Shown here: piece by piece, positions 48,736 through 64,000 of the stretch
Layout of the letters: every line of letters begins with the position of its first letter
Numbering within the stretch: the stretch's first letter is position 1
Assembly (NCBI GenBank): GCA_011525755.1
Contig: WYBS01000091.1
Span: 6,922 to 70,921 of the forward strand
Reading direction: 5' to 3'
Length of the DNA stretch: 64,000 nt
Source of the DNA: Planctomycetaceae bacterium
GTDB taxonomy: Bacteria; Planctomycetota; PLA2
The notes under the pieces: generated by a model
What the model saw: the letters and a program-made list of their open reading frames with translations, nothing else
Database searches by the model: none
Told to the model about the DNA's origin: nothing
Program-made: the position numbers and the translations under genes

Positions 48736-50130
48736 TCAGCCTTCCTGCACGAGCCCGAAGCGAGCGAGGAACGCGGCAAGGACCTCGTGGAACTTCGCGT
48801 TCTCCTCGACGAACGGCATCGCCTTCGTCTCCCGGATCGGCGCGACCATCGAGCGCGGGAAGATCCGCTGGATCCGCTCGGCGTCCACGTGCCCGCTGAA
48901 CGGGCTCGACGCGCTGGAGAGGAAGAGGGCCGGCACGTCGAGCCGCCCTTCCCGGCTCCACGAGATCTCGGGCACCGTCGCGAACCCCTGCGGTTCGCGG
49001 GCGCGGTGGAAGAGCCACGCGATCTCGAGGTCGGCGGGGTCGAGGAACCCCTGCGCGAGCCCGATCGCGTGGAGTTTCGCGAGGAGCCCCTCGTCGAACC
49101 GCGCGCCGGTCTCGCGGAGCAGCGTGCGCGCGACGAACTTCTCGTTCGCGTCGCCCGCCGCCGCGCCGCGCCGCAGCGCGTCGGCGTACGCCCGCTTGTC
49201 GAGCGCCGTGTCGATGAGCACGAGGCCGCTGCACCGGTCGGGATGGAGCACGGCGTAGCGGAGCGCGATCCAGCCCGAGGCCCCGTTCGCGAGCACGACG
49301 AACCGCTCGATCGAAAGCGACGCGCGGAACGCGTCGAGCGCGCGCACGAGCCGGTCGACGGGGTACTCCGGGAGATCGTCGCCGTACCCGCTCCTCCCGG
49401 TCAGCTCCTGCACGCCGGGCAGCCGCACCCATGTGATGGCCGCCCTGTCCCGGAGCGGGAGGAGGTAGGGCCCGAACGCGGCGGTCGTGAATCCGAACGC
49501 CGGCAGCACGAGGATGTGGGGGGGCTTCGGGGGCGGGCCGCCCTTCCTCTCCGTCGGGACCGGCGCGACGGTCCGCGTCTCGAGCTTCACCCCCTCGTAC
49601 TCCCCCTGCTTCGCCTCCTCGTCGGCGGGTGCGAACCGCGGGTCGCCCTCGTTCTTCTTCCACCACTCGCTCCAACGTGCAGGGTCGAGGAGGCACGGCG
49701 CGGGCGTGAGCGCGCGGAGCGTCTCCACGATCTGGAGCGCCGTGCGGCGGTCGGTCTCCTTGCCGAGGGCCTCGACGAGCGCGCTGACGGCCCGCCGGTC
49801 CCTGTGGCGCGCGAGGGCGCGCGCCGCGGCGCGCCGGACGGCCGGGGTCCCGTCCTTGAGCGCGAGCGCGAGCACGGTGGCGTTCCCGAGGTCGGGCTCA
49901 AGAAGGCACGCCCAGGCGACCGCCTCGCGCGCTTTCGGCCTCCCGTCCCGGAGGAGCGCCGCCCGCGCCCGGAAGACCTCCTCGGTCCCGGCAAGCCGGG
50001 CGAGCCCCTCTACCGCCTCCCACCGGGTCTCCCAGCGAGGGGCGTCGGCCCTCTCGAGCAGGACGTCGAGGGAGCCCTCGGCGGGGGCCCTCGCCGCGAA
50101 AAGGAGGAGAACGGGCAGGAGGCGCCGCAT
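48736..50130 (-). CDS. secreted HEAT-repeat plus alpha/beta-hydrolase fold protein
   Basis: Signal peptide 'MRRLLPVLLLFAARAPAEG'. HEAT-like 'AVRRAAARALARHRDRRAVSALVEAL'. Hydrolase-like 'VVLANGASGWIALRYAVLHPDR'. Confidence 0.65.
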   Translation of the reverse strand: MRRLLPVLLLFAARAPAEGSLDVLLERADAPRWETRWEAVEGLARLAGTEEVFRARAALLRDGRPKAREAVAWACLLEPDLGNATVLALALKDGTPAVRRAAARALARHRDRRAVSALVEALGKETDRRTALQIVETLRALTPAPCLLDPARWSEWWKKNEGDPRFAPADEEAKQGEYEGVKLETRTVAPVPTERKGGPPPKPPHILVLPAFGFTTAAFGPYLLPLRDRAAITWVRLPGVQELTGRSGYGDDLPEYPVDRLVRALDAFRASLSIERFVVLANGASGWIALRYAVLHPDRCSGLVLIDTALDKRAYADALRRGAAAGDANEKFVARTLLRETGARFDEGLLAKLHAIGLAQGFLDPADLEIAWLFHRAREPQGFATVPEISWSREGRLDVPALFLSSASSPFSGHVDAERIQRIFPRSMVAPIRETKAMPFVEENAKFHEVLAAFLARFGLVQEG

Positions 50131-50371
50131 CGGCTTCCTTGGAAACGTCCCAAGGCCCGTGCAGTTTCGCACGCTTTGGCCGTGCGGCTCGGCACCGGGT
50201 GCTCAGGGAAAGGGGCTTCCCAAGCGGGTTCCCGAAGTCGTAGGATTGGCAAGCCCTGTGCATCAGGGCCTTTGGGCACCGCGGGGATCCGCCCCGCGGG
50301 GCGTGTGGCAAGCGTCCGATCCGAGAGACTCGTAGGCGAACGGGGCCGTTGCCGAGGGAGGCCCCGGTAGC

Positions 50372-50406
50372 CCGAGGGCGTCCGGTCGAGAGCCGGACGC
50401 CCTCGG
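50372..50406. terminator. perfect 14-bp stem-loop (CCGAGGGCGTCCGG-N7-CCGGACGCCCTCGG), candidate factor-independent terminator after the minus-strand prenyltransferase-like gene
   Basis: Direct reading. No U-tract. Confidence 0.4.
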
Positions 50407-50465
50407 ACCGCTCCTTCGTTCGGGCCGACGGCCCCCCTTGCCCCCGGACCCCCTGATTCCCCCCG

Positions 50466-51548
50466 CTAGCGCTGGAAGATCGGCAGATAGCCCTCGTCCA
50501 CCGAGAGGGCGAGCACCGCGAACGCGGTCGCGTGGTGGCGGCCGTGCGAGCCGCGACGCGCGTCGGCCGTGAGGCGGTCGTCCCAGAATCCCTCGCGCTG
50601 CTGCTCGTCGAGGAGGCGCGGGATCCCGTACCGCTTCCAGGTCTCCCAGTGCGCGCCGCCAGCGCGGTAGAAAGCCTGCGCCGCGTAGTAGTGGCAGTAG
50701 AACGGCCACTGCAGGTGGAAGAGGTCGCGGCCGCGGTAGGAGCGGTCGAGGTACTCGAGCCCCTTCGTGATGGGGCGGGAGTAGTACTCGCCGAAGCCGT
50801 GCATCGCGGTGAGCGCCGCGGCCGTGAGCGCGGGCGTGGACGTGTCCGCCATGTGGCTGTACTTGAACGAGCCGTCGGGCTTTTGCGAATCGCGCAGGTA
50901 CTTGAGGCCGCGCTCCTGCACCTCGCGGTCGACGACGAAGCCCGCATCCGCCGCGAGGCGGAGCGCCTGCACGACGGTGACCGTGACCGAGCCCTCGTGC
51001 ATCGTCGAGGAGCGCGGCTCGTAGCCCCAGCCGCCCGTGATCGTCTGCGAATCCTCGATCACCTGCACCGCGCGCTTGATCTTCTCCCTGAGCTCGCGCT
51101 CGCGCGCCGCGTCGGCCCTGCCCGTGCCGTAGACGAGGATGAGCGCCTGCGTGGCGTAGCCGTGGCCGTGCATCCGGGAGTCCGCGTCGCCCTCGGCGAA
51201 GATGTAGCCCGCGGGATTTCCCTGGAGGGGCGTCGGTGCGCTGTTCTTGAGCAGGAAGTCGACCGCGCGGCGCACGACGTCGCCGCGACCGGGGAAGTCG
51301 GCGTAGGGGCCGAACCCCTCCTGGTGGCCCTGCGCGAGGAACGCGAGCACGCCGAGCGCGGTGATGCCGATGATGCCGCGGTCCGGGGCGCCCCACGATC
51401 CTTCCTTGCTCTGCTCCTGCGCGAGGTAGTCGAGGCCCCTGCGGACCGCCCTCGCCCGGTCCCCCTCGAGCTCGCGGGGGGGCGCCGAGATGTCCTGCGG
51501 CCGCGCCAGGGGCGCGAGTGCCAGGAGGAGGGCGAGGGACGCGCGCAC
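50466..51548 (-). CDS. secreted prenyltransferase/squalene-oxidase-repeat (terpenoid-cyclase-fold) protein, paralog 1
   Basis: GTG start giving signal peptide 'MRASLALLLALAPLARPQ'. 'QEQSKEGSWG' and 'DSQKPDGSFKY' are PFTB-type repeats. C-terminus '...EGYLPIFQR'. Confidence 0.65.
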   Translation of the reverse strand: MRASLALLLALAPLARPQDISAPPRELEGDRARAVRRGLDYLAQEQSKEGSWGAPDRGIIGITALGVLAFLAQGHQEGFGPYADFPGRGDVVRRAVDFLLKNSAPTPLQGNPAGYIFAEGDADSRMHGHGYATQALILVYGTGRADAARERELREKIKRAVQVIEDSQTITGGWGYEPRSSTMHEGSVTVTVVQALRLAADAGFVVDREVQERGLKYLRDSQKPDGSFKYSHMADTSTPALTAAALTAMHGFGEYYSRPITKGLEYLDRSYRGRDLFHLQWPFYCHYYAAQAFYRAGGAHWETWKRYGIPRLLDEQQREGFWDDRLTADARRGSHGRHHATAFAVLALSVDEGYLPIFQR

Positions 51549-51607
51549 CCGTAGAGGGTACCCCGCGGCGGGGCCGAGACGATCGAATCCCGCGCGGGGC
51601 CGCCGCG

Positions 51608-52369
51608 TTACCGGTCCCCCTCGGGTTCCTTCTCCGCCTCGCGCTTCGCGCGCTGCGCGGTGTACTCCTCGACGAGACGTCGGTACTGGATCGGGATGCG
51701 GCTGAAGTCGTTCCGGTTGATCCGCTCCTGGTCCTCCGGCGGCAGGCGGGCGATCCACGCCTCCACCCGCTTCACCTTCGCCGCCGCCGTGTCCTCGGGA
51801 GCCTGCGGCCGCCGTTGCCGGTCGAGCTGGCGCTTGTCCTTCTGTTCGTCCTTCTGCTGGCGCGGGGACCGGGGCTGGTGCTGCTTCCGGTCCTCTTCCT
51901 CGCGCTCGCGGAGCTGCTTCTCCCGCTCCTCGGCGGACTTCTTCTCCTTCGAGTCGGAGGACGTGCCCTGCATCTGCTGCTGGCGAGGGAGGGAGTTGAG
52001 CAGCTCCTCGAGCTGCTTGACCGTGAGGTCCGCCTTCTCCCGCTCGCTCCGGAGCATCTCCTCGAGGCGCTGCGAGATCTCGCCGTGCTTCGACTCGAGC
52101 TGTTGCCGCTGCTGCGCGCGCTCCTCGGCGCCGGCGCCGCCCTCGCCTCCCTGCTCGGGCGGGAGCAGCTTCTTCATCTCCTCCTCGACCTGCTTCTGCG
52201 CCTCGACCAGGCGGTCGACGCGCGTGATCTCGAGGAGGAGGCGCTCGCTCTCGCGCATGAGGCGGGAGATCTCGGCGACCTGCTGCCGGAGCTTCTCCTC
52301 GACGGATTCCTGCTGCGCCGCGGCGGTTGCCGCCGCGAGGAGCAGCGCGAGGAAGGTCTTTCGGATCAT
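51608..52369 (-). CDS. secreted coiled-coil protein (253 aa) with C-terminal 'RRLVEEY' motif
   Basis: Signal peptide 'MIRKTFLALLLAAATAAAQQ'. Highly charged E/R/Q/K-rich. The C-terminus resembles that of the 8429-9676 protein. ATGA overlap with the upstream giant gene. Confidence 0.55.
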   Translation of the reverse strand: MIRKTFLALLLAAATAAAQQESVEEKLRQQVAEISRLMRESERLLLEITRVDRLVEAQKQVEEEMKKLLPPEQGGEGGAGAEERAQQRQQLESKHGEISQRLEEMLRSEREKADLTVKQLEELLNSLPRQQQMQGTSSDSKEKKSAEEREKQLREREEEDRKQHQPRSPRQQKDEQKDKRQLDRQRRPQAPEDTAAAKVKRVEAWIARLPPEDQERINRNDFSRIPIQYRRLVEEYTAQRAKREAEKEPEGDR

Positions 52370-55300
52370 CGTCCGTCCTCCTTGTCGTCGCCGGGCGCGT
52401 CGCCGTTCCCGGCCCCGCCGCCCTCCTCCGGACCCGCGCCGCCGCCCTCGGGCGGCGTCTCGCCCCCGGCCCCGTGGCCCTCGTCGGAGGGCCCGAGGGG
52501 GTGGTCCTCCTCCGAGCCGAAGAGCGACTGGGAGAGCGAGTCGAAGAGCTCCGCGAGCGATCCCTGCTGGTGGTACATCCGCTCGACGCGCGCCTTGTCC
52601 GCGTCCGTCGGCGGCTCCTTGCCGAATTCGGGCCGGTTCGCGAAGAAGTTCTCGCGCTCCTGGTTGAGCGACTGCTGGAGCACGAGCATCATGCGGATCT
52701 CGGCGTCCGGCGGCACGAGCACCGGCTTGTTCTGCACGTCGGTCGGCCGCTCGCCCTGCTGCTGCTGTTGCTGCTGCTGCTGGCGACGGTCCTGGAGGTC
52801 GCGTTCGAGGCCCTTGATCGCGAGGTCGAACCGGCGCACGACGTCGCCGAGGAGCTCCTGCGGGAGCAGGCCGACCTCGCTCATCTCGAGCTGCGCGGCC
52901 GTCTCCTTCAGGTCCGCGGAGCAGCCCTTGAGGATGTAGGTGTAGACGACCGCACCCTCGCCCTCGACGGCCCCCGCCTTGTCCGCGACGTCGCGCTGGA
53001 GCGCCGAGACCTGGTCGATGAGCTTCTTGAGGTCGCCCCTCCGGATGTCGCGCGTCACGCGCCCGCGCTTCTTCACCTCGGCCTCGATCGCCATCAGCAT
53101 CTCGCGATGGCCCTGCGCGGCGCGGCGGAAGTTCCGGAGCTCCTCCTTGAGCTTGTAGAGCAGCTCGTGCTGGCGGAGCTGGCGGTAGCGGCGCTCCTCC
53201 TTGTCGAGCTGCTGCTGCGCCTGCTCGAGCGCCTTCTCCGCGCGCTCCTGCGAGCGCTCGGCCTCGTCCGGGTCGCCCTCCTCGAGGGCCTGACGCGCCT
53301 GCCGCATCGCGGCCTGCGCGTCCTGGAGCGATTCGACCCCCGGCTTCTGGTCCTGCCGGCGCAGCCGCTGCTCGAGCTTTTTCACCTGGTCCTCGAGCTC
53401 CGCCTGCCGCTCGCCGATCTTCTTCATCGCCTCGCGCCCGCCGGGCGTCGTGTCGCGGTGCGACTCGCGGAGGCCGTCGAGGCTCCGCTTCGCGGCATCG
53501 ACCTTCTCGTCGGCCTCGCGGCGGTCCTGCTCCGCGCTCTTCGGCAGCCCCTGCCGGAGCCGGCGCAGCGAGCGACGGAGGGCCTCCGTGGCCTCCTTCG
53601 TCCGCTCGGCGGCATCCTCGAGGCGGCCGCGGGAATCGCTCTCGCGGGCCGCGCGGGCCCCTTCCCCGAGCCCCTTCCCGATCTCCTCCGCGCGACGCGC
53701 GGCCGCCTCCGTGGCCTTCTCGATCCTCTGCAGCGCCTCGGCGTTCCTCTCGGCGGTCGCCTGCGCCTCGCGCTGCGCGTCGGCGACGAGCTTGTCGAGC
53801 TGCCGGATGACCTCGTCCTGTCGCTTCTGCGCGGCGACCGGGTCGTCGCGGCGGATCTCGTCGCGGGCGGCAGCAGCCTCGTTCGCGGCGGCCTCAAGCA
53901 CCTCGCGCTGCGCCTCGCCGGGCCGCTCCGCGAGGCCCTTCAGGTCGTCCGCCACGAGCCCCTGCCGCCCGGCGAGGTCCTCGCTCGGGCGCGTGGCCGC
54001 GGCGATCTCGCGCATCGCGCGCTCGGCCCGCTCGGCGGCGGCGCGCGCCCGCTCCTCCGCGCGGCCGGCCTGCCCCTCGCGGGCCGACGCGGCGGCCGCC
54101 TCGAGATCCTCCTTGGCGCGCTCGGCGGCGGCGCGGGCGGCGTCGGCGGCGGCCGCCATCCCGCCCTCCTTCGCCTTCGGGTGGTCGGCGAGCGCCTTGA
54201 GCCTCTCCGCGAGAGCCTCGGCGCGGGCTGCGGCCTCCTCTGCCTTCCGGTCCTCGCCCGCGGCAGGCCCTTGGGTCTCCTTCGACGCTCCGGCGAGCGC
54301 ATCGTGCGCGCGGCGGAGGGCGTCCGCGGACTTCCGGGCGGCGGCCTCGGACGGGCGCCCCTGCTCGAGCCCCTCGGCCGCCTTCCTGGACTCAGCGGCG
54401 GCCTCCTTCAGCGCGCTCTCCGCGGCCTCCGGGGCGCCGGCGACGGCGGATTCGGCCTCGCGAGCGACGCTCTCCTCGTCCCGCGCGAGCGTCTCCCTGG
54501 ACGGCGCGCGAGCGAGCGCCGCCTCGATCGCCTCGCGCGCCCGCTCCAGGGTGAGCGCCTGCGTGCCGAGCGCCTCCGCGATCCTGCGCAGCGCGTCCGC
54601 CTCGCCCTCGCGCGCTGCCGCCGCGGCCTTCTCGATCTCCTCCTTGGCCTTGGTCGTGTCCGCCGCGTCGCGCGCTCGCTCGAGCGCCTCGCGCGCGGCG
54701 ATCTCCCTGGCCACGGCGTCCTGGCGCCGGGCGAGCGCGTCGATGGCCCGTGCCTTCTCGCCGAGGGCGTTCCTCTTCGCGGCGGCCTCTTCGGCGGCCC
54801 GGGCATCCCGCGCGAGCGCCTCGAGCTCCGCGAGGGCCTCGTTCGCCTGAGGCGTGAGGGCGTCCGCCTCGCCGCGCCGGGCGCCGGTCTCCTGGCGCAG
54901 GCGCTGCTGGCGCGTGAGGAGATCCGCGAGCCGCGTGGCGCGCTCCCGCGCCGCGTCGATCTCCTTCAACTCCGCGGCGGCGCGCCGGTCCAGATCCTCG
55001 ATCTGCCTGCCGAGCTGGTCGAGTTCCTTCGCGCCCTTCCGCGCGGCCTCCTCGGCTGGCGTGCGGGCCACGGCGTCTTGCGTCTCCTTCCGGAGCTCGC
55101 GCTGGCGCCGCGTGAGGGCGTCGGCCTCGGCGCGCGCGTCGCGGAGCGCCGCCTCGCGGTCGCCGAGCTCCTTCAGGTCGTCCGGTCCCGTGAGGACGTG
55201 GAGGATCTCCTCGAGCGTTCCCACCACGCCCTGCCCGAGCTCCTGCACCTCCTCGGTCGCGTCGGGGCGCTCCTCGAGGGTGCGCGCCATCTGTTCCATC

Positions 55301-55608
55301 GCGCGCTGGAGGTTCACGAGCATCAGCTCGGTCTCCTCGCTCCCCGCGACGCCGCCCACCTTGATCTTCTGCTGGAGGATGATCGCGCGGACGCGTTCGA
55401 GGATCTCGGCCTTCTCCTGCTCGTTGCGGCGGCGCAGGTCCTCCTTGAGCACGTCCATCTTGTCGAGGAGGTCGCCGAGCTGCTCGGCCGCGCGCCTCTG
55501 GCGCGCCGCGAGCTTCTGGAGCGTCGAGCGCGCCTCCGGCTCCTGGCCGCCCGCGGGGAGCGCGAGCGCGCAGGCGAGGGCGAAGAGGAGGATCGGGGGG
55601 ATTCGCAT
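52366..55608 (-). CDS. giant secreted Ala/Glu/Arg-rich coiled-coil protein (1080 aa) with Q9 tract
   Basis: ATG at 55608 has a GGAGG RBS 7 nt upstream. Signal peptide 'MRIPPILLFALACALALPAG'. Low complexity. The (CTG)4TTG(CTG)4 run at 52756-52782 encodes the poly-Q. Confidence 0.6.
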   Translation of the reverse strand: MRIPPILLFALACALALPAGGQEPEARSTLQKLAARQRRAAEQLGDLLDKMDVLKEDLRRRNEQEKAEILERVRAIILQQKIKVGGVAGSEETELMLVNLQRAMEQMARTLEERPDATEEVQELGQGVVGTLEEILHVLTGPDDLKELGDREAALRDARAEADALTRRQRELRKETQDAVARTPAEEAARKGAKELDQLGRQIEDLDRRAAAELKEIDAARERATRLADLLTRQQRLRQETGARRGEADALTPQANEALAELEALARDARAAEEAAAKRNALGEKARAIDALARRQDAVAREIAAREALERARDAADTTKAKEEIEKAAAAAREGEADALRRIAEALGTQALTLERAREAIEAALARAPSRETLARDEESVAREAESAVAGAPEAAESALKEAAAESRKAAEGLEQGRPSEAAARKSADALRRAHDALAGASKETQGPAAGEDRKAEEAAARAEALAERLKALADHPKAKEGGMAAAADAARAAAERAKEDLEAAAASAREGQAGRAEERARAAAERAERAMREIAAATRPSEDLAGRQGLVADDLKGLAERPGEAQREVLEAAANEAAAARDEIRRDDPVAAQKRQDEVIRQLDKLVADAQREAQATAERNAEALQRIEKATEAAARRAEEIGKGLGEGARAARESDSRGRLEDAAERTKEATEALRRSLRRLRQGLPKSAEQDRREADEKVDAAKRSLDGLRESHRDTTPGGREAMKKIGERQAELEDQVKKLEQRLRRQDQKPGVESLQDAQAAMRQARQALEEGDPDEAERSQERAEKALEQAQQQLDKEERRYRQLRQHELLYKLKEELRNFRRAAQGHREMLMAIEAEVKKRGRVTRDIRRGDLKKLIDQVSALQRDVADKAGAVEGEGAVVYTYILKGCSADLKETAAQLEMSEVGLLPQELLGDVVRRFDLAIKGLERDLQDRRQQQQQQQQQGERPTDVQNKPVLVPPDAEIRMMLVLQQSLNQERENFFANRPEFGKEPPTDADKARVERMYHQQGSLAELFDSLSQSLFGSEEDHPLGPSDEGHGAGGETPPEGGGAGPEEGGGAGNGDAPGDDKEDGR

Positions 55609-55706
55609 GGGGGTGCCTCCGCTGACGGACCGCCGCGGGTCGCCCGGATGCGCGCCCGCCGCGCCGCGGGCGCGGGGGAGCCGGGGAGATCTCGTCGGGC
55701 GCACGG

Positions 55707-57965
55707 CTACTTCTTCTCCTTGCGCAGCTCGTCCACGATGCCCTGCTCCGTCTCCTTGAGACCCTTGAACCAGCTGATGACCCCCTCGTAGCTCTCCCAC
55801 TCGCGCATGAGGCGCTCGAGCTTCTCGAGCCCGGCGAGGATCGTCCGCAGGGCGGCGTCGGCCTCGGCGAGGGCCGTGCCACGCTCCGCGGAGTCCGCGG
55901 CGGAGCCGGCGCGGCCGAGGGCGCGGTAGGTGCGCGGTCCCTCGTCCGTCGCGAGGTCGTCGGCGAGGAACGCCATCTCGAGCAGCTTCATCTGGGCGTC
56001 GCCGAGGCGGATGCGCTTCTCGACGAACGCGACCCAGAGCTCGCGGTAGAGCTCGCCGCGGAACGGCAACGCGCCGGCGTCGGACGGGGCGAGGAGGTGC
56101 CGCTCGTAGAACGGGAGGATCTGCTCGGCGGCCGAGCGGTCGTCGAGCCGGTTGAAGACGTACAGGTTGACGACGGTGCCCACGCGCGCGGCGAGCGTCT
56201 CGAGCTGCTCGAGGACCCGCCCCTGCGAGGCCTGGGCGAGGTCGTTCGCGTGCCGGAACTCCTGGGGCACGTCCGAGACGTCGCGCGCGAGCGTGAGCTT
56301 CTCGCCCGTCTCCCGCGCGCGACCGTCGGCGCGCCGCACCGTCTCGCGCAGCTCCTGCTGCCGCGCCTGGAGGATCTGCGCGAGCTCCTCGTCGCCGACC
56401 ACGTCGATACGCTGCTGGCTCCGCGTCTCGCGGGTCTTCCCGCCCGAGTCGAGCGCCTCGAGGGTATAGGTGAGCTTGTCGCCCTTGTCGATCAGCTTGC
56501 CGTCCTCGCGCAGGAGCCGCGCGAGGTCGATCGCGAAGATGCCGTGGAGCTCGGTGCCCGTGCGCGCCGCGGGGACGAGAGCGCGGATCGCGTCCCCGCC
56601 CGACTCGCCCGCCTTCACGCTGCGCGGGGACTCCTCGTTGACGCGGTACCGGAGCGTCACGCTCTCGACGCGGTAGTCGTCCTGGGCGGAGAACGCGACG
56701 AGGACGATGCCCCCTTCGAGGTACTCCGACTGGGCGGCCGGCGTCCGCACGCGGATCGACGGCGGCTGGTCCTGCACGACCTGGAGGAGGAACGTGTCCG
56801 CGCCCGGGTCATTCTCCTCGCCGTTCGTGCCGACGAGGCGCAGCGCGTACCGGAGGTTCTTCTCGGCCACGACGTCGAGGACCGCGAGGTCGGGCTCGAG
56901 GAGCTCCATCGGCCGGGGCTCCTCGGTGCCGAGGACGGCCGAGGCCTCGCGCAGCGGCAGGTTCGTGCGCACGCGGACCTTGAGCTTCGTCCCCTGCGGG
57001 ATTCGCTGTCCGCCCCCCTCGAGCTTCGCGGGGGGCCTCGCCAGGTAGTCGGGGTACGTCGCCTCCATCTCGATCCCGAGCACGGAGGGCGGCGTGAGCG
57101 CCTCGATCCCGTAGTTCTCCGCGCGATCGTCGTCCCCGCCGGTCACGGTGAACCGGTAGGAGGAGTAGACCTTCAGCGTGAACGCGAAGAGCGAGGGGTC
57201 GTCCGCCGAGGGCGTGAGGTCGATCTCGTCGGCCCGGCCGGGGCCGGCGGTCGTCTCCCAGAACGTGAAGCGGACGCGGTCGGGGACCGAGCCCTCCGCG
57301 CGCACGCGGAGGGTCGTCTCGTGCCCCAGCGTCACGCGACGCGAGACGCCCGGCTCCATCCCCTCGACGACGAGCACCGTGCGGCGCGGCCACGAGATCT
57401 CCCGCAGGAGCAGGGAGCGCTGCACGAAGATCCTCGCGAGGTCGGCGCGCGCGACCGCGGCCGTGCCGACGAGGAGCGCGACCGCTCCGGCCGCCGCCGC
57501 CCAGCGCGCCGGGATCCGCCCGGCCGCGACACGCCGGAAGGGGATCGTCGCGACCTCGCGCACCGTCTCCTCGACGACCGCGCGCATGAGCTCCCGCGAG
57601 TCCTCGTTCTCCGGGTCGTCGGCCGCGCTTGCGAAGGCGAGGCTCGAGCGCAGCCGGTCGTTCAGGCGCGGGTGCGCGCGCTCCACGCTCGCGGCGAGCG
57701 TCTCGTCGGGAAGCTTCCTGAGGAGCGGCCGGAGCAGGTTGCGGACGATCACGGTCCCCGCGCCGAGCAGGAGCATCAGGAGGAGCACCGCGCGGACGGA
57801 CAGCGGCAGGCGGAGCACGTAGTCGAGCCCGAAGAGGAGGGCGAGCGCCGCGCCGAGGAAGATCGCGAGGCGGCCCGCGCCCAGCACGAGCATGAGCCCG
57901 CGGACGCGCGTCCGCAGGCTCCCGAGGCCCCGGCGCAGCGGGCGGACGAGCTCCGCGAGGCTCAT
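55707..57965 (-). CDS. large membrane protein (752 aa), 2 N-terminal TM helices (possibly DUF4175-like)
   Basis: TMs 'LMLVLGAGRLAIFLGAALALLFGL' and 'AVLLLMLLLGAGTVIV'. The segment 'RNLLRPLLRKLPDETLAASVERAHPRLNDRLRSSL' parallels 'FLKPGIPAVAREIDARLSTDRFSSAL' of the 8429-9676 protein. ATGA overlap with the anti-sigma stop. Confidence 0.6.
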   Translation of the reverse strand: MSLAELVRPLRRGLGSLRTRVRGLMLVLGAGRLAIFLGAALALLFGLDYVLRLPLSVRAVLLLMLLLGAGTVIVRNLLRPLLRKLPDETLAASVERAHPRLNDRLRSSLAFASAADDPENEDSRELMRAVVEETVREVATIPFRRVAAGRIPARWAAAAGAVALLVGTAAVARADLARIFVQRSLLLREISWPRRTVLVVEGMEPGVSRRVTLGHETTLRVRAEGSVPDRVRFTFWETTAGPGRADEIDLTPSADDPSLFAFTLKVYSSYRFTVTGGDDDRAENYGIEALTPPSVLGIEMEATYPDYLARPPAKLEGGGQRIPQGTKLKVRVRTNLPLREASAVLGTEEPRPMELLEPDLAVLDVVAEKNLRYALRLVGTNGEENDPGADTFLLQVVQDQPPSIRVRTPAAQSEYLEGGIVLVAFSAQDDYRVESVTLRYRVNEESPRSVKAGESGGDAIRALVPAARTGTELHGIFAIDLARLLREDGKLIDKGDKLTYTLEALDSGGKTRETRSQQRIDVVGDEELAQILQARQQELRETVRRADGRARETGEKLTLARDVSDVPQEFRHANDLAQASQGRVLEQLETLAARVGTVVNLYVFNRLDDRSAAEQILPFYERHLLAPSDAGALPFRGELYRELWVAFVEKRIRLGDAQMKLLEMAFLADDLATDEGPRTYRALGRAGSAADSAERGTALAEADAALRTILAGLEKLERLMREWESYEGVISWFKGLKETEQGIVDELRKEKK

Positions 57966-58969
57966 CGGCGTGCCTCCGCGCGGACGCCTCCTCGCGGGTA
58001 CGAAACGAAAAGCGCCTCCCCATCCGTCACCGGACGCGGGAGGCGCAGGTCGAAGGTCCGCTCTGCCCCGGGCGCGAGCGGGAAGGGCTGGAAGTCGTCC
58101 GGCGCGAGGGGGAAATCGTGGCCCGCATAGCTCGCGAAGAAGAGCGGCTCGCCGCCCTTCGAGGGCGCGAGGTCGATGGGGTCGGGCATCTCGTTCCGCA
58201 GCGTGACCCGGATCGTCGAGGCGTCAAGGGTCCGGGCTTCGAGCGAGGGGCGGCGGAACCAGGAGCGGGGGGAGGGGGGCAGGGGGGGAGGGGGGGCGGT
58301 CGATGCGAAGAAGGCCTCGCCGGGGCCGGCGACGGCCTCCCGGCCTTGCCACGAGCATCGCACGTGGCCGGACTCCGTCCAGACGAACGTGTGCTCCCTC
58401 CGCTCGACGAGAAACGCGGTCCCGGTCGTCACCGCGACGAGGTCCCCGGCCGTCACGGAAAACCCCGACTGCTCCGGAGGAACCTCCAAAAAGACGCGGC
58501 CCGCGCCGAGCGCGAGCCGTGTCTTCGAGAGCAGCCGGATGTCCGTGCCGGCGTCCATCGTGATCGTGATGCCGTCCGCCGTGACGACGCGGGCCACGTC
58601 CGACGCCTCGTAGACGCCCGGCTCGCGCTCCGCGACGTGGCCGTGCACGCGCGTGAGGCCCGTGGCGCCCTGCGGCCACAGGAGCGCGAACACGATGAGC
58701 GCGGCGGCGGCCAGCGGCAGCCGGAAGCGGTGGAGGAGGGAACGCTGCCTCGGCGCGGGCTCCTCGATGCGTTCGCGGATCGAGGACCAGAGTGCCGGGG
58801 GAGGCTCGAGCCGGGGCGCCTTGTCATGGAGACGCATGTGGCGCTCGATCTCCCGGAGCTCCTTCGCGAGGTCCTTGTCGCTCGCGACCGCCGCCGCCAC
58901 GCGAGGCGCGTCGCCGGGAGGAAGCCCGCCGAGGGCGAAGGCGACGAGATCCTCCCGCGTGATGTCCAT
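57962..58969 (-). CDS. anti-sigma factor, FecR-domain
   Basis: N-terminal anti-sigma segment. TM 'LPLAAAALIVFALLW'. FecR-like 'TADGITITMDAGTDIRLL...GRVFLEV...TGTAFLVER'. Start abuts the sigma stop. Confidence 0.75.
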   Translation of the reverse strand: MDITREDLVAFALGGLPPGDAPRVAAAVASDKDLAKELREIERHMRLHDKAPRLEPPPALWSSIRERIEEPAPRQRSLLHRFRLPLAAAALIVFALLWPQGATGLTRVHGHVAEREPGVYEASDVARVVTADGITITMDAGTDIRLLSKTRLALGAGRVFLEVPPEQSGFSVTAGDLVAVTTGTAFLVERREHTFVWTESGHVRCSWQGREAVAGPGEAFFASTAPPPPLPPSPRSWFRRPSLEARTLDASTIRVTLRNEMPDPIDLAPSKGGEPLFFASYAGHDFPLAPDDFQPFPLAPGAERTFDLRLPRPVTDGEALFVSYPRGGVRAEARR

Positions 58970-59563
58970 TCACTCCTCCAGATACGATGCGAGCCGGTCT
59001 CGCAGCAGGCGTTCCGCCAGCGCCACCCGGCTCTTCACGGTCCCCACGGGGATGTCGAGGATCTGCGCGATCTCCGCGTAGGGGAGCTGCTGGTAGCGTG
59101 CGAGCACGAAGGCCGCGCGCAGCTTCTCCGATAGCCCGGCGACGGCGCGACCGACCGCCTCGGACAGCTCCTTCGCCCGCGCCCCGCCGAACGGCGACCC
59201 GTCGCCGCGCGCGTCGGGCACGAGCGAGAGCTGCGCCTGCGCCTCCTCGCCGCCGGCACCCGTCGCGAACGGGCGGCGCCGGATCTTCTCCCGCTCGTTG
59301 AACCAGAAGTTCTTCGCGATCTCGAAGAGCCAGGTCGACACCTTCCCGATGGGGCGGTAGGTCGCGCGGGCGCGCCAGACGCGGAGGAAGGTCTCCTGGA
59401 GGTAGTCCTCGGCCGCGATGCGGTCGAAGCACATCTGGTGGAAGAAGTTCAGGAGGGGGTGCGCGTAGCGGCCGTAGAGCAACTCGAAGGCCCTCACGTC
59501 GCCCGCTTGAACGCGGGCCATGAGCTCCTGGTCGGAACGGTCGTCGGAAATCCCACTGGCCAT
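58970..59563 (-). CDS. ECF-type RNA polymerase sigma-70 factor
   Basis: Region 2 'LLYGRYAHPLLNFFHQMC...DYLQETFLRVWR'. Region 4 'LARYQQLPYAEIAQILDIPVGTVKSRVALA'. Confidence 0.9.
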   Translation of the reverse strand: MASGISDDRSDQELMARVQAGDVRAFELLYGRYAHPLLNFFHQMCFDRIAAEDYLQETFLRVWRARATYRPIGKVSTWLFEIAKNFWFNEREKIRRRPFATGAGGEEAQAQLSLVPDARGDGSPFGGARAKELSEAVGRAVAGLSEKLRAAFVLARYQQLPYAEIAQILDIPVGTVKSRVALAERLLRDRLASYLEE

Positions 59564-59709
59564 ATAACCGCTCCGGTTCCCGGGGGTTCGGCGCGAGCCT
59601 AGCACCGGGCCGGGATACGCGCAAATGTCTGTACACCAAAGGCTTATGTCGTCCGGTCTACTGCGGGGGGCTCCGGGGGCCCGGCCTCGCGTGTCCGGCG
59701 CAAAGAGGC

Positions 59710-60882
59710 CTACCGCTGGAAGATCGGGAGGTAGTGCTTCGGCACCTGGAGGATGATCGCGGCCACCGAGGTCGAGAACGCATCCCCGACGTGGCGGGCG
59801 CGCCAGGAGGTTTCGCTGCCGCGCGGGCCGCCGGCCGTCGTGTAGGCCCTCTCGAGCAGGTGGTCGCGCACCATCGAGTACCACGCCCGCCATGTCTCCC
59901 CGCCGCGGGTGTACATCGCCTGGGCGGCGTAGTAGTTCCCGTAGAAGTAGAAGTAGTGGTCGTCGAACTCCTGGAGCACGGCGTCGTAGGTGCGCTCGAG
60001 GTAGAGGAGGCAGTCGCTGATCTTCGGGATCTTCGTGATCCCGTTCTGCATGCAGAATCGGTGGACGTCGGCGTCGGAGTAGAGCCCGGCCTGGTAGATC
60101 GTCGTGAGGCCGGCGGCCGTCAGCGCGAAGCTGTTCCTGTTGAACGGGACGTCCTTGTGCTGGTAGAGGAACGCGCCCCGCTCGTTGGGCCGCGTGACCG
60201 CGGAGTTCATCACGTATTCGAGCGCCTTGTCGATGTGGATCTTCGGGACCTTGATCCCGATGTTTCTGGCCTCGCGCAGCGCGACCACCTGGCAGACGGT
60301 GATCGACATGTCGGCGTCCTGCGCCCCGGGCGCGTAGCGCCAGCCACCCAGCGCGTTCTGCGAGTTGTAGGTGAACTCGACGGCGCGGTCGAGCCGCTCC
60401 CGGAGGATCGGGTTGCCCGTCATGCCGTACATCTCCGCGAGGAAGAGCAGGCTGAAGGCGTGGCTGTACATGCGGCTTCCGTTGCGCGTGATGTAGCCGT
60501 CCTCGTGCACGGAGGAGAGCACGAAGTCGAGCGCGTCCTTGACGACCACGCCGTACGGACCCTCGCCCGGCAGGTGACCGCCCGCGAGGAATGCCATGCC
60601 GGCCAGCGCGGTCACGCCGAGGTGCGGCAGCCCGCCCGGCGGCTGGTGGACGGGATCGGGACGGTAGCCGTCGTTGATCTTGAAGCCGAGGGTCGCGTTC
60701 CACGAGCCCTTCGCGTCCCCCGTCCGGTTCTGGCGCTCGGCGAGCCAGCGGAGCGCGCCTTCGACCGCGTCGTCCGTCCGGTCGGTGTAAAGGGTCTCCC
60801 GCGGCCGGATCTCCTCCTGGGCCCACGCACCGCCGCCCAAGGCGGCCATGAGGCTCAGGAGCGCTGTCAGGCGAAGGTGCAT
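59710..60882 (-). CDS. secreted prenyltransferase/squalene-oxidase-repeat protein, paralog 2
   Basis: Signal peptide 'MHLRLTALLSLMAALGGGAWAQ'. 'RQNRTGDAKGSW', 'NSQNALGGWRY'. C-terminus '...PKHYLPIFQR', same tail as paralog 1. Confidence 0.65.
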   Translation of the reverse strand: MHLRLTALLSLMAALGGGAWAQEEIRPRETLYTDRTDDAVEGALRWLAERQNRTGDAKGSWNATLGFKINDGYRPDPVHQPPGGLPHLGVTALAGMAFLAGGHLPGEGPYGVVVKDALDFVLSSVHEDGYITRNGSRMYSHAFSLLFLAEMYGMTGNPILRERLDRAVEFTYNSQNALGGWRYAPGAQDADMSITVCQVVALREARNIGIKVPKIHIDKALEYVMNSAVTRPNERGAFLYQHKDVPFNRNSFALTAAGLTTIYQAGLYSDADVHRFCMQNGITKIPKISDCLLYLERTYDAVLQEFDDHYFYFYGNYYAAQAMYTRGGETWRAWYSMVRDHLLERAYTTAGGPRGSETSWRARHVGDAFSTSVAAIILQVPKHYLPIFQR

Positions 60883-60987
60883 CGGCCTCTCATCCACAGT
60901 ATACGTGCCTCGCGGTCTCTTGGGCGGGCCCCACGATAGATCCATCGGCCGACAGGGCGGCGCGGGTAAGAGGAGGGCGGGAGTCCG

Positions 60988-63900
60988 CTACCGGGGCCCG
61001 TAGGCGAAGACCCAATTCGTGTCGGTCGCGACGAGCAGGACGCCGTTCTGGACCCTCGCGCTCGTCGACTTCATGTCGGCCCGGGGCAGCACGATCTCCT
61101 CGAGAAGATCGCCGGACAGGGGGTCGAGAAGCCGCAGGCGATGCTCGCCGACGCGCCTCCGGGGCGCGATCGAGACGACGAGGACGCCTTGTGCCTCGAC
61201 CAGCTTCGGGATCTCGCTGCTCGTCTCCGTCAGCTCGACCGAGAACCGGACCCGGAGGTCGGGCATCTCGTAGGCGGTGAGCCGCGCCGGCGCCTCCCCG
61301 GTCGTCGGGGTGACGACGAGGAGCAGCGAGTCGTGACGCGGCTGCGGGTCGGGATCGAGGTAGCGCTCCTCGTCGTCCCCGGCGCGGGGAACGTCGAGCC
61401 TCGGGACCGACTTCACCTCGCGCCCGGTCTCGAGCTCCAGGACCGTGGCGCCGCGCGTGTCGTCGACCGCCGCCACGAAGTCGCCGGCCACGTTGAGGTG
61501 GCGGAGGGAGCGGTTCTCGTCGTCGGCGCGCGAGCGGTGCCTCCATACGATGGCGGACTCGCCGGACTCGGCGGGGTCGAGGAGGAAGAGCGAGTAGGCG
61601 TGCCGGTACTGGAACCCCTGCGCCTGCTGGCGGGTGCCGACGCCGACGAGGATCCGGCCGCCGGGGAGCAGGAACGGCTCGAGTCGCCGCTCCGCGCCCG
61701 GCGAGGACTCGAGCCCGATCCGGTTCTCGACCGCGCCGCTCGTGGGGTCGAGGACCCAGACCTCCACGGGCTGCGTGCTGAGGAGGAGGAGCCGCTCCTC
61801 GTGCGCGACGATCTGGTAGCTGGCGCCCGGCGGGTCCATCGCGCCGGCCGGAAGCAGCCGGAACCAGAGGAAGCTCCCGTCCACGGGGTGGAGCGCCGCG
61901 ACGCCCACCTGGCCGTGGATGCCGCGCTCGCGGTAGAGCAGGAAGACCTGCCCGCGGTGCTCGGCGAGCGAGAGCGCGCGTCCGCGGTCGGGCACGGGCC
62001 GGCGCGCGATCGCGCGGCCCGTGGCCGCGTCGAAGACGTGCACGAACCCCTCCGTCACGGCGCAGAGGCGATCCCCCGCAAGCACGAGCGGGCCTTTCGG
62101 CTGGTCGTGCGCGAAGTCGATCGCGTAGCGCTCCGCGCCCGTGCGGGCGTCGAGGACGCGCACGCGCATGCCGGCCTTGAGGACGACGGTCCCCGCGAGG
62201 GCCTCGGGGATCTGGCCGAGCAGGTCGGGGACCTCCGGCGTCGAGTCGTTCAGGAGTTCCTGCTCGAAGAGGAGTCCGAGCTTCGGGGGGAGGTCGCGCC
62301 GCCGCGCGCTCCGCGCGAGGGAGGCATAGGGCTCCCGGGCCAGCCACTCGCCGGCGATCGTGCCCGCCCGCATCTTCGTCCCGTCCGGCCGCGGCCATGT
62401 CGCGTCGGGGTGGCGGGCGCGGAGCCTCAGGAGGGCTGCGTAGGCCGGGCCGTACGAGCCCCGCGCGTGGAGCGCCTCGACCATGAGGACCAGCGCCTCG
62501 GGGACACGCGGCGACGTCCCGTGCTCGGCGAGGAACCCCTGCATCGTCCGCGCGGCCCCGGTCGCGTCCTTCGCGCGCAGCTGGCGGCGCGCGAGCTCGA
62601 TCGAGGCCGCGTCTGCCGCCGCGGCGTTGGCGTAGATCTTGAGTCCGCGCTCGAGTGCCTCGAGGTCGTTGCTCGCGAGCGCGGCCTCGAAGAGCTTCCC
62701 CGCCCTCTTCTCGTAGGGTTCGTAGGCGTCCCGGTGCTGCTCGAGCAGCCTCCGGATGCGGCGGCTCGCGATGCGGCCGTCCTCGCCGTCGGGGTCGTTC
62801 TCGACGAGCTGCTGCAGGAACGCGAGTGCGCGGCGCGGCGACCCCTCATCCACCTGGAGCTCGGCGAGACGGAGGAGCGCCCAGCTGCGCAGCGGCCTCC
62901 CGGTCGTCTCGTCCGTCGCGTCGCCGTGGTCCCGCTCGATCGCCTTCAGGTTCCGCGCCCGCCACTTGCGCGCCTCGTCCTCGCCCGCGCCCGCGAGGGC
63001 CTCCTCCAGCGCCCGTCGCGCCCGGATCCGCGACCGGTCGTCCTGCACGGCGCGGAGCGCGGCGTCGAACTCGCCCTCGGCGCGCTCGAACGCGCGCTCG
63101 TCGAGGGATGCCCACGCCCTCCGGAGCAACGCGCGGTGGAGCCCCTGCTCGGCGCGTCGCGACGCGGCCGCCGCCCCGCGCGCGTCGGCAAGCGCCTTGG
63201 CGCGCCGGAAGAGGTCCACCGCGGGGCTCACCTGGCCCGCCGCCAGGTGGATGTCCCCGGCCTCGAGCAGCGGAAGCGGCTCGTCCGGGTGGAGCCGCGC
63301 CCGCTCGCGGGCCTCGTCGAGGACCGCCGCCCCGTCGAAGCGCGCGCCGACCAGCAGGCGGCTCGCGGTCACGAGCACGCCGTCGCCCCAGGCGAGGTGG
63401 ACATGGAGGTTCCCGTCCCGTCCGACGCGCTCCGGCGCCGCCTTGCACTTGCCGGTCACGGGATCGATCAGGTAGATGGCGTCGGCGGTCGGGACCCAGA
63501 GCGCGTCCTCGGCGAGGAAGCCGCGGCCCGCGCCCACGTCCCGCTCGAACCATGTCGTCCACGCGATCTCCCCGGGCTCCGCGCCCCGCTTCGGATCGCG
63601 GATGAGCCAGATCGCGGCGACGCCCCTGGGGCCGCCCACGTAGGCCCGCTCCGCATCGACCGCGTGGAGGATCTCGATCTCCATGGGCCGGTCGCCTGAA
63701 AACATCTCCTGCGGCACGGTGAAGACCCGCTCGCCGTTCCTGCGGTCGAGGCCGAGGAGGCCCGTGCTGTCGATCGGCGCCGCGACGACGACGTCCCCCG
63801 ACACGAGCGGGGGGCCGTTCGCGAACCGGGGCCAGCGGCGGGGCGCCTCGAACCAGTAGAACGTCGAGGGGATCCGCTCGGTCTCGTAGCCGGTCGCCCA

Positions 63901-64000
63901 GAGCGGCGTGCCGAGGAGCGCGTCCACGGCGCAGACGACGCCGAGGTTCGTCCCGAGGTAGAGGACGCCGTCGACCTCGGTGACGGGCATCGGCATGCAC
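60988..64000 (-). CDS. giant PQQ-like beta-propeller plus TPR protein, N-terminus beyond window
   Basis: ORF open to the window edge. Repeated 'G.L.A.D..TG...W' propeller-like units in both terminal thirds. Central TPR/helical region. Confidence 0.6.
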   Translation of the reverse strand, partial: CMPMPVTEVDGVLYLGTNLGVVCAVDALLGTPLWATGYETERIPSTFYWFEAPRRWPRFANGPPLVSGDVVVAAPIDSTGLLGLDRRNGERVFTVPQEMFSGDRPMEIEILHAVDAERAYVGGPRGVAAIWLIRDPKRGAEPGEIAWTTWFERDVGAGRGFLAEDALWVPTADAIYLIDPVTGKCKAAPERVGRDGNLHVHLAWGDGVLVTASRLLVGARFDGAAVLDEARERARLHPDEPLPLLEAGDIHLAAGQVSPAVDLFRRAKALADARGAAAASRRAEQGLHRALLRRAWASLDERAFERAEGEFDAALRAVQDDRSRIRARRALEEALAGAGEDEARKWRARNLKAIERDHGDATDETTGRPLRSWALLRLAELQVDEGSPRRALAFLQQLVENDPDGEDGRIASRRIRRLLEQHRDAYEPYEKRAGKLFEAALASNDLEALERGLKIYANAAAADAASIELARRQLRAKDATGAARTMQGFLAEHGTSPRVPEALVLMVEALHARGSYGPAYAALLRLRARHPDATWPRPDGTKMRAGTIAGEWLAREPYASLARSARRRDLPPKLGLLFEQELLNDSTPEVPDLLGQIPEALAGTVVLKAGMRVRVLDARTGAERYAIDFAHDQPKGPLVLAGDRLCAVTEGFVHVFDAATGRAIARRPVPDRGRALSLAEHRGQVFLLYRERGIHGQVGVAALHPVDGSFLWFRLLPAGAMDPPGASYQIVAHEERLLLLSTQPVEVWVLDPTSGAVENRIGLESSPGAERRLEPFLLPGGRILVGVGTRQQAQGFQYRHAYSLFLLDPAESGESAIVWRHRSRADDENRSLRHLNVAGDFVAAVDDTRGATVLELETGREVKSVPRLDVPRAGDDEERYLDPDPQPRHDSLLLVVTPTTGEAPARLTAYEMPDLRVRFSVELTETSSEIPKLVEAQGVLVVSIAPRRRVGEHRLRLLDPLSGDLLEEIVLPRADMKSTSARVQNGVLLVATDTNWVFAYGPR

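Follow-up and report, generated by a model that had tools for sequence, protein, structure and literature searches.

Exported paralogous (alpha/alpha)6 toroid proteins in a conserved Bat/MoxR-type gene cluster of Planctomycetota

Bat-type operons bring together genes for a MoxR ATPase, a DUF58 protein and BatA/von Willebrand factor A (VWA) proteins, as in batA-E of Bacteroides fragilis, the bat genes of Leptospira and BB0170-BB0176 of Borrelia. We know of no toroid subunits described for the Bat operons of Bacteroides, spirochaetes and rhizobia, and the literature searched reports none. Here we analyse 64,000 nucleotides of a Planctomycetaceae contig (WYBS01000091.1; this whole stretch is called the window below), which encode two exported toroid proteins, the products of torA and torB (TorA and TorB), in a co-directional gene cluster of about 25 kb. 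Our reading, with moderate confidence, is that these toroids, two fixed parts of one envelope cluster of the Bat/MoxR type, are non-cyclase periplasmic binding subunits.

The likeness to the Bat operons lies in the MoxR AAA_3 ATPase, the DUF58 protein, a BatA protein with a double-transmembrane N-terminus and a VWA domain bearing an adhesion site that depends on metal ions (MIDAS), a second membrane VWA protein and tetratricopeptide repeat (TPR) partners, all encoded in the same order; the Bat operons have been linked to envelope integrity. The Planctomycetota cluster is, however, 2-3 times larger than the classical Bat operons and ends with a toroid gene. Its toroids, a PQQ/TPR giant of 1470 amino acids, a coiled-coil protein of about 1100 amino acids and an embedded extracytoplasmic function (ECF) sigma/anti-sigma pair are not known from the classical Bat operons, as judged from the papers cited here. 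NorQ/NorD, CbbQ/CbbO and RavA/ViaA likewise pair a MoxR AAA+ ATPase with VWA adaptors, but they are cytoplasmic and have a defined enzyme client, whereas here the VWA domains and their candidate clients are predicted to be extracytoplasmic, so that any force or signal would need a route through the membrane. A conserved envelope-integrity operon of Rhizobium leguminosarum is cited as a further Bat-type relative in PMC5700661.

With a G+C content of 72%, the window is rich in long spurious open reading frames (ORFs), and the real frames were therefore chosen by G+C content at the three codon positions. Long antisense or shadow ORFs are many, such as one of 618 amino acids (58970-60826, minus strand), which overlaps torB and contains the sigma factor gene as its 3' part. 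Both toroid genes have coding-type values (0.71/0.49/0.96 for torA and 0.63/0.45/0.95 for torB at positions 1/2/3). The original prediction of two secreted paralogues with a terpenoid-cyclase fold was borne out: the ORFs contain the strings quoted for them (QEQSKEGSWG and the C-terminal tail GYLPIFQR in TorA, NSQNALGGWRY and HYLPIFQR in TorB), each product has a Sec-type signal peptide, and full-length identity between the two is 32% (BLASTP E 3e-38), far above chance. TorA and TorB are genuine paralogues that share an alpha/alpha toroid fold of the terpenoid-cyclase type, and ancient ones within a very large exported family of single-domain (alpha/alpha)6 toroids; a profile search of 1.84 billion representative sequences returned 24,937 matches at E <= 1e-3 and 6,037 at E <= 1e-30.

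The signal peptides of five exported cluster products all stop just before a glutamine, which is followed by an acidic residue or another glutamine: AWA↓QEE in both the PQQ giant and TorB, AGG↓QEP in the coiled-coil protein, AAA↓QQE in the 253-residue protein p253 and ARP↓QD in TorA (window 50466-64000, minus strand; L002:5507-9919). Among the aligned toroids, 96% have D or E in the column that follows the cleavage site. This pattern suggests a common mature N-terminus, possibly pyroglutamate, or a common processing preference for the exported products of the cluster. Some distant tail-bearing toroids have Tat-type (twin-arginine) signals in place of Sec signals, for example TRRQVLASGAALGAGL (P0217, P0218, P0224, P0236-P0238; L135:1795-2898, minus strand), which implies that at least part of the family is exported already folded. 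Tandem duplication of the torB-type gene is seen in a few genomes, where both adjacent copies have the tail (L009:10001-12229, L033:2869-4975, L048:3-1651, L176:7168-9269).

The order of the cluster (MoxR, DUF58, BatA-like VWA, VWA, PQQ/TPR giant, torB, ECF sigma and anti-sigma where present, the 752-residue membrane protein p752, coiled-coil, p253 and torA) is largely common to about 80 loci from metagenome-assembled genomes (MAGs) of Planctomycetota. It recurs on contigs whose torB homologues are 88%, 70%, 49% and 48% identical (L001, L002, L004 and L005), with products of about 830 (VWA), about 1470 (PQQ/TPR), about 760 (p752-like), 1064-1150 (coiled-coil-like) and about 250 amino acids (p253-like), and more distant torA-type homologues (39-43% identity; L086-L088) occupy the same terminal position. 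Synteny was scored by tblastn of the cluster proteins against the 80 best species-level genome loci, the denominators being the loci long enough to show the gene. Upstream of the torB homologue lie the PQQ giant in 59/62 loci, the second VWA protein in 52/58 and DUF58 in 43/55; downstream lie p752 in 52/72, a second toroid more than 3 kb away in 32/48 and the sigma factor in 3/72. The ECF sigma gene occurs in L001-L005 and L086-L088 and is missing from most of the distant clusters. When one genome per species was scanned, at least 557 relatives came up, all of them in MAGs and nearly all labelled Planctomycetota, including Planctomycetia and Phycisphaerales.

On the evidence of this gene order, torA and torB are two fixed genes of a single conserved cluster, not two separate modules. 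The original prediction had placed each toroid immediately downstream of a giant protein and had seen in this a recurrent pairing. The placement is right for torB, which follows the PQQ/TPR giant, and wrong for torA, which is separated from the 1080-residue coiled-coil protein by p253. As for the pairing, the linkage is indeed conserved, as is the association with giant exported proteins that was to be checked; what recurs is one operon-like cluster rather than two equivalent modules, and the PQQ giant and the 1080-residue protein are unrelated to each other. Long stop-to-stop ORFs covering both the PQQ gene and torB were noted in 12 loci and considered as possible gene fusions; the matches fall in different reading frames and each toroid has a signal peptide of its own, so that these ORFs are open-frame artefacts of high-GC DNA.

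Where the sequence reaches further upstream, the cluster starts with a MoxR AAA_3 ATPase (in L056, AAA_3 1.2e-64 and DUF58 4.8e-45), and the MoxR/DUF58 pair is likewise found in L157. The BatA-like protein matches Pfam BatA (2.5e-15) and TIGR02226 (3.5e-16; double-transmembrane N-terminus). A MIDAS DxSxS motif follows the transmembrane segments directly in both VWA proteins of L002 (DTSTS at residue 100 of BatA, DTSSS at residue 90 of the 836-residue VWA protein, VWA836), and both have C-terminal transmembrane anchors. A basic loop between the two N-terminal transmembrane segments points to a periplasmic position of the large part with the VWA domain, and the two MIDAS domains are thus predicted to share a compartment with the toroids. 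The predicted orientation agrees with the topology of the BatA-type protein BB0173 of Borrelia, whose VWA domain was found experimentally to be periplasmic (PMC5700661).

A minimal form of the cluster occurs on lower-GC contigs whose toroids are annotated as Phycisphaerae (L157 and L135); it consists of MoxR, DUF58, BatA, a VWA-like protein, a protein of 1086-1192 amino acids, one of 209-291 amino acids and one tailed toroid. The N-terminal 440 amino acids of p752 match the N-terminus of its large protein (L135, E 8e-13), and the C-terminal motif of that large protein resembles the one in the coiled-coil protein. The minimal form implies that the ending 'giant, small protein, toroid' is ancestral, and that the lineage of the window gained the PQQ giant and a second toroid, close relatives also gaining the sigma/anti-sigma pair. 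No cultured host was identified among the best 120 matches to a low-GC toroid of the minimal cluster. At one distant locus (L088:11359-16414), a different, second MoxR system lies directly past the toroid cluster, with genes for DUF4129, DUF4350, MoxR and DUF58 proteins and then for a DUF8413 protein with weak SpoIIM matches.

The alpha6-alpha6 toroid that the original prediction had expected was recovered in the AlphaFold2 models of both proteins, which have 12 barrel helices (TorB, m5c40b970aadc, predicted local distance difference test score (pLDDT) 94.1; TorA, ma199e371a6af, pLDDT 93.1; predicted template modelling score 0.90 each). Neither has a close relative among solved structures. The best Foldseek matches of TorA in the PDB are squalene-hopene cyclase (SHC), the single-domain myxobacterial SHC-like entries 8paj/8pak, drimenyl-PP synthase (DMS), MstE and AprG, with template modelling (TM) scores of 0.55-0.66 at 15-20% identity; its matches to the cyclases and their single-domain relatives have E values of 7e-9 to 3e-7. 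Over the toroid models, SHC, MstE and DMS are found at E 1e-9 to 1e-6. Those of TorB are AprG, 8paj, glycoside hydrolase (GH) family GH76 and YihS (TM about 0.5-0.6, 9-16% identity). A sequence search of the PDB returned nothing for TorB and, for TorA, only a match of about 100 residues to an SHC repeat (SHC residues 494-602).

The invariant or nearly invariant polar residues of the family (R137, H141, Q175, W181, Y183, S193, T195, R203, Y223, S227, Y240, Y268, Y314, Y318 and T371 in TorB numbering) lie at, or close to, the N-terminal start of every second helix, and from the secondary structure we infer that they line a funnel. The conserved pocket in this funnel would include R137, H141, D/E191, S193, R203 and several Tyr, and its lining appears to differ systematically between A-type and B-type toroids. 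A list of invariant columns had at first suggested that no acidic residue is conserved; this was overturned when residue classes were considered, since column 191 is D or E in 100% of the sequences, and the one other universally acidic column, 23, adjoins the site of signal-peptide cleavage. The strongest covariation in the family (mutual information with average product correction (MI-APC), z 8-11; 436-sequence alignment) joins TorB positions 139, 176, 182, 191 and 192 (window about 60307-60468, minus strand), which switch together from Y, N, R, D, M in the B type to H, T, G, E, G in the A type. These are candidate specificity-determining pocket residues, and their joint switch suggests one common pocket tuned to different ligands in the two types, although phylogeny adds to the signal.

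Such a pocket also gives the main rival to a reading of the toroids as binding subunits, namely that they are periplasmic enzymes acting on an envelope glycan or lipid (a metal-independent lyase, isomerase, epimerase or hydrolase) and that the cluster is an envelope-remodelling pathway. We regard this as possible but rather doubtful. The conserved polar residues are placed at the N-terminal ends of every second, inner helix, the location of the active site in (alpha/alpha)6 enzymes; GH76 mannanases, YihS, cellobiose-2-epimerase isomerases and AprG are among the fold neighbours; there are weak Pfam Pec_lyase matches; and the Tat-type signals of some relatives mean export in the folded state. 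As candidate catalytic residues of the kind seen in (alpha/alpha)6 GH, lyase and isomerase families, the predicted funnel offers the universally acidic D/E191 with R137, H141 and several invariant Tyr, at a fold similarity of TM 0.5-0.6 and 9-16% identity. However, GH-type mechanisms need two carboxylates and the family offers a single conserved acidic column, and the TM score to any enzyme is just 0.5-0.66 at 9-19% identity. Save for the generic SQHop_cyclase_C repeat in TorA, matches to Pfam and NCBIfam enzyme families all stay below cut-off, and genes for a substrate pathway are absent from the cluster.

The original prediction treated the shared tail as a feature of this pair and as a potential sorting or interaction signal. 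It proved to be family-wide. There are at least 2490 torB homologues, and 119 of the best 120 (down to 46% identity) end in [YHQF]LP[IV][FHL][QE][RK]; the tail is likewise present in all of the best 120 torA homologues (down to 39% identity), mostly as LP[IL]FQ[RK]. Every toroid ORF in 88 loci is tailed, and the loose pattern occurs in a single unrelated ORF across about 2 Mb. The search for further YLPIFQR-tailed proteins that had been proposed was carried out as an unbiased scan of metagenome-contig DNA for YLPIFQR followed by a stop; it yielded at least 121 matches, and 117 of the 121 listed are toroid-family ORFs according to a profile search, the other four being ORFs of 9-18 amino acids or truncated. 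At greater distance, the motif is the exact end of 105 of 147 top representatives (50% identity), and most of the others end in near variants. A few relatives run 2-17 residues beyond it, and in multidomain relatives of 1000-2300 amino acids a terminal ...LEVYYRYLP[LM]Y is followed by about 10 further residues. Among 7-residue windows of the family, the last seven residues rank second in conservation (mean frequency of the top residue 0.86 versus 0.57 overall), the last 10 residues have pLDDT values of 88 (TorB) and 90 (TorA), and there is weak covariation between tail columns 379-387 and helix positions 146-150 (MI-APC, z <= 4.8). We infer from these models and alignments that the tail closes the fold of this toroid family, packing back on the barrel, and is not a sorting tag.

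A different role for the tail would be that of a docking peptide, the free end of ...LPIFQR-COOH or D/E191 being captured by a VWA MIDAS metal or by the TPR groove of the PQQ/TPR giant; this would tie the toroids to the MoxR-driven machine and would be the interaction signal of the original prediction. In MoxR systems the VWA MIDAS does bind an acidic group of its client (PMC9976466), about 99% of close homologues have the motif as their very end, as do the distant representatives counted above, and the extended cluster pairs two periplasm-facing MIDAS VWA proteins with two toroids, as well as placing a TPR-rich giant next to torB; the single intact MIDAS and single toroid of the minimal cluster L157 fit too, if anecdotally. 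Even so we think it unlikely. The tail is ordered in both models and covaries, if weakly, with barrel helix positions; the members that run past the motif, and the multidomain relatives with their extensions, argue against a strict need for a free C-terminus in docking; and stand-alone toroids far from any cluster retain the tail. With D/E191 acidic throughout, the case for the C-terminal carboxylate as the sole acidic handle is weakened.

It is very improbable that the tail is a sorting signal for secretion or surface anchoring after the manner of PEP-CTERM, LPXTG, the C-terminal domain of type IX secretion or the beta-signal of outer membrane proteins. A strictly C-terminal, highly conserved segment is what one would look for, but a sorting tag would mark diverse cargo and this one is almost confined to one fold family. 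The original prediction had named its presence regardless of context as the finding that would speak against it, and the tail is indeed kept whatever the position in the cluster, as well as on the stand-alone toroids L076, L078 and L183. Of the hallmarks sought in the last 40 residues (transmembrane helix, basic cluster, terminal aromatic residue) none was found, no hydrophobic span follows the motif and the end is Gln-Arg, ordered in the models; sortase, exosortase and dedicated secretion genes are absent from the cluster.

With terpene cyclases (SHC 1sqc/2sqc, 8paj/8pak, MstE 6sbe, drimenyl-PP synthase) the toroids share the (alpha/alpha)6 barrel and Q-x-x-G-x-W repeats; unlike them, they lack the DxDD general acid, are exported with signal peptides and have a different pocket composition, and identity is just 15-19%. 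The retained Asp-rich catalytic motifs that the original prediction had asked about are missing: neither TorA nor TorB contains D.DD, D.DT or DDxxD, and a 99-sequence alignment shows no conserved acidic cluster. A Zn-binding Asp/Cys/His triad was not found either, the family having no conserved Cys and H141 as its only conserved His. SQHop_cyclase_C reaches 52.6 bits in TorA, above its cut-off of 26.1, and all other Pfam matches of both toroids are below cut-off, the weak ones including SQHop_cyclase_C/N and Prenyltrans (18.1 bits against 26.5). The NCBIfam cyclase models TIGR01787, TIGR01507 and TIGR03463 score 20-44 bits over about 100 residues, against cut-offs of 322.7, 431.1 and 851. The toroids therefore have the barrel and QW-like repeats of the cyclase fold and none of the catalytic features. 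Activity as class II terpene cyclases or prenyltransferases on hopanoid or isoprenoid lipids is, for all the SQHop_cyclase_C score, the QW-like repeats and SHC as best fold match of TorA, highly improbable for single-domain proteins that lack DxDD, DxDTT, DDxxD and the Zn-ligand triad and that Sec or Tat export takes away from prenyl-diphosphate pools.

An alpha/alpha toroid can also serve as a non-enzymatic binding module, as in C3d and the thioester-containing domain (TED) of alpha-2-macroglobulin. C3d is bound by the I (VWA) domain of the integrin CR3; it is among the fold matches, and MIDAS VWA domains co-occur with the toroids here. In contrast to TED, the toroids have neither the CGEQ thioester (C[GA]EQ is found in 0/387 family sequences) nor macroglobulin domains, and TED_complement scores 16.2 bits, under its cut-off of 22, so that the likeness is an analogy for a possible contact between VWA domain and toroid.

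We see about an even chance that the toroids are periplasmic binding subunits of a Bat-type envelope complex, anchored by three membrane proteins and scaffolded by the exported giants; as such they would bind a ligand or a partner and would not be cyclases. Five large proteins of the family (P0274, P0277, P0296, P0286 and P0243; 1100-1900 amino acids) contain two or three toroid domains each, and all but P0243, which has toroid domains only, are fused to PD40/WD40-like beta-propeller repeats and end in ...LEVYYRYLP plus a short extension. These fusions may be taken as weak Rosetta-stone support for a partnership of toroid and propeller. Several points weigh against the binding-subunit reading. 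The placement of tail and pocket rests on secondary structure, conservation and weak covariation, and the covariation in the pocket may partly mirror the phylogenetic split into A and B subfamilies. D/E191, together with Arg, His and several Tyr, could equally form an active site. The MoxR-to-VWA half lies beyond the window and is taken from orthologues that are 70-88% identical. The stand-alone toroids, which lie in unrelated neighbourhoods, show that a toroid does not strictly need an adjoining cluster. Finally, nothing on the cluster or the family came up in the literature searched, which covered BatA/DUF58/MoxR in Planctomycetes, the 'squalene oxidase repeat', DUF4175/TIGR02302 and structures of myxobacterial single-domain SHC.

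A bolder form of the binding-subunit reading, to which we give little credence, makes the toroids clients or heads of a trans-envelope MoxR-VWA machine, docking through LPIFQR-COOH or D/E191 on the VWA MIDAS or on the TPR of the giant. The activity of the MoxR ATPase, relayed across the membrane, would then load or remodel the toroids on the propeller/solenoid and coiled-coil scaffolds, and this loading would build or repair an envelope structure. If true, the toroids would be the first defined periplasmic substrates for the Bat/MoxR operon class.

The remaining genes of the cluster are listed in Table 1. The full-length orthologue of the PQQ/TPR giant in L002 (5507-9919) has 1470 amino acids, a signal peptide, a PQQ_2 match of 2.3e-29 and YfiO/BamD-like TPR. 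The anti-sigma gene abuts the sigma gene and overlaps the p752 gene by 4 nucleotides; its product matches the NCBIfam anti-sigma factor model at 3.6e-13 and 50 bits, under the curated 100-bit cut-off. The embedded sigma/anti-sigma pair would put the distal half of the cluster, from p752 to torA, under the control of an envelope signal. No Pfam or NCBIfam family matched p752 and no Pfam family the 1080-residue protein, of which the L001 orthologue has a weak DUF4175 match; its C-terminal part is conserved in the orthologous loci. The p253 gene overlaps the coiled-coil gene by 4 nucleotides and has orthologues of 218-291 amino acids at the same place in L001, L002, L004, L005, L086-L088 and L157. 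Near its C-terminus the 1080-residue protein has a poly-Gln run (QQQQQQQQQ; window about 52500-52700, minus strand), and the p253-like protein of the minimal cluster (L157:10547-11422) has a poly-Gln/poly-Ser run; by sequence, low-complexity linkers are a recurrent feature of these exported partners.

Table 1. Positions in the window of the cluster genes, associated elements and neighbouring genes
Feature	Position	Strand	Properties
PQQ/TPR giant, C-terminal 1003 aa of ~1470	60988-64000	minus	Pfam PQQ_2 1.7e-15, TPR_6/TPR_19; 5' end beyond window
torB	59710-60882	minus	390 aa, Sec-exported single-domain (alpha/alpha)6 toroid, ends HYLPIFQR
Codons of torB tail YLPIFQR	59713-59733	minus	stop codon 59710-59712
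ECF sigma factor, 197 aa	58970-59563	minus	Pfam Sigma70_r2, r4_2; NCBIfam sigma70-ECF; fills gap after torB
FecR-domain anti-sigma factor, 335 aa, one transmembrane segment	57962-58969	minus	Pfam FecR 1.4e-06
p752, 752-aa membrane protein	55707-57965	minus	N-terminal transmembrane helices, large extracytoplasmic part
Exported A/E/R-rich protein, 1080 aa, presumed coiled-coil	52366-55608	minus	signal peptide
p253, exported charged protein, 253 aa	51608-52369	minus	G+C at codon position 3 0.94, signal peptide; between coiled-coil gene and torA
torA	50466-51548	minus	360 aa, Sec-exported single-domain (alpha/alpha)6 toroid, ends GYLPIFQR; last cluster gene
GC-rich hairpin	50369-50409	minus	~55 nt past torA stop; RNA fold -46.3 kcal/mol, z -3.3 vs shuffles
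HEAT-repeat + alpha/beta-hydrolase fusion, 478 aa	48736-50172	minus	~290 nt downstream of torA, beyond hairpin
NUDIX protein	46256-46915	plus	
TPR protein, 554 aa	44595-46259	plus	
EF-G-family GTPase	42254-44371	minus	
Ser/Thr kinase-AAA_16-TPR protein, 1252 aa	38495-42253	minus	

The hairpin that follows torA has no T-run and is probably a transcript end or a stabilising stem; a simple terminator scan did not flag it. A consensus promoter and terminator scan of 50000-61200 found no promoter-like sites and only intragenic terminator-like matches, and the whole 64-kb window contains no tRNA genes and no Rfam family at the gathering threshold. The HEAT/hydrolase fusion gene, present in L001 and absent from L002, probably lies outside the cluster. 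At the distant locus L086 (16182-20183) the cluster is also flanked by a TPR protein and an EF-G paralogue, and the kinase/EF-G/TPR neighbourhood may thus be conserved beside the cluster too.

Searches of Pfam, NCBIfam, PDB sequences and the literature found no studied member of the toroid family, which comprises at least 6,000 clusters at 50% identity (E <= 1e-30). For annotation, these 'prenyltransferase/squalene oxidase repeat' proteins lack the catalytic motifs and are best left out of any tally of terpenoid enzymes from metagenomes, and a toroid ending in LP[IL]FQ[RK] is a simple sequence signature for finding such clusters. What we describe in these uncultured bacteria is a solid pattern of comparative genomics that can serve annotation and the choice of experiments, and on present evidence no surprising new mechanism. 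MoxR-DUF58-BatA/VWA operons occur widely among bacteria and have been connected with envelope integrity and stress; in Planctomycetota the cluster is expanded and invariably includes one or two exported toroids of this very large family, which are concrete candidates for its periplasmic partners or clients.

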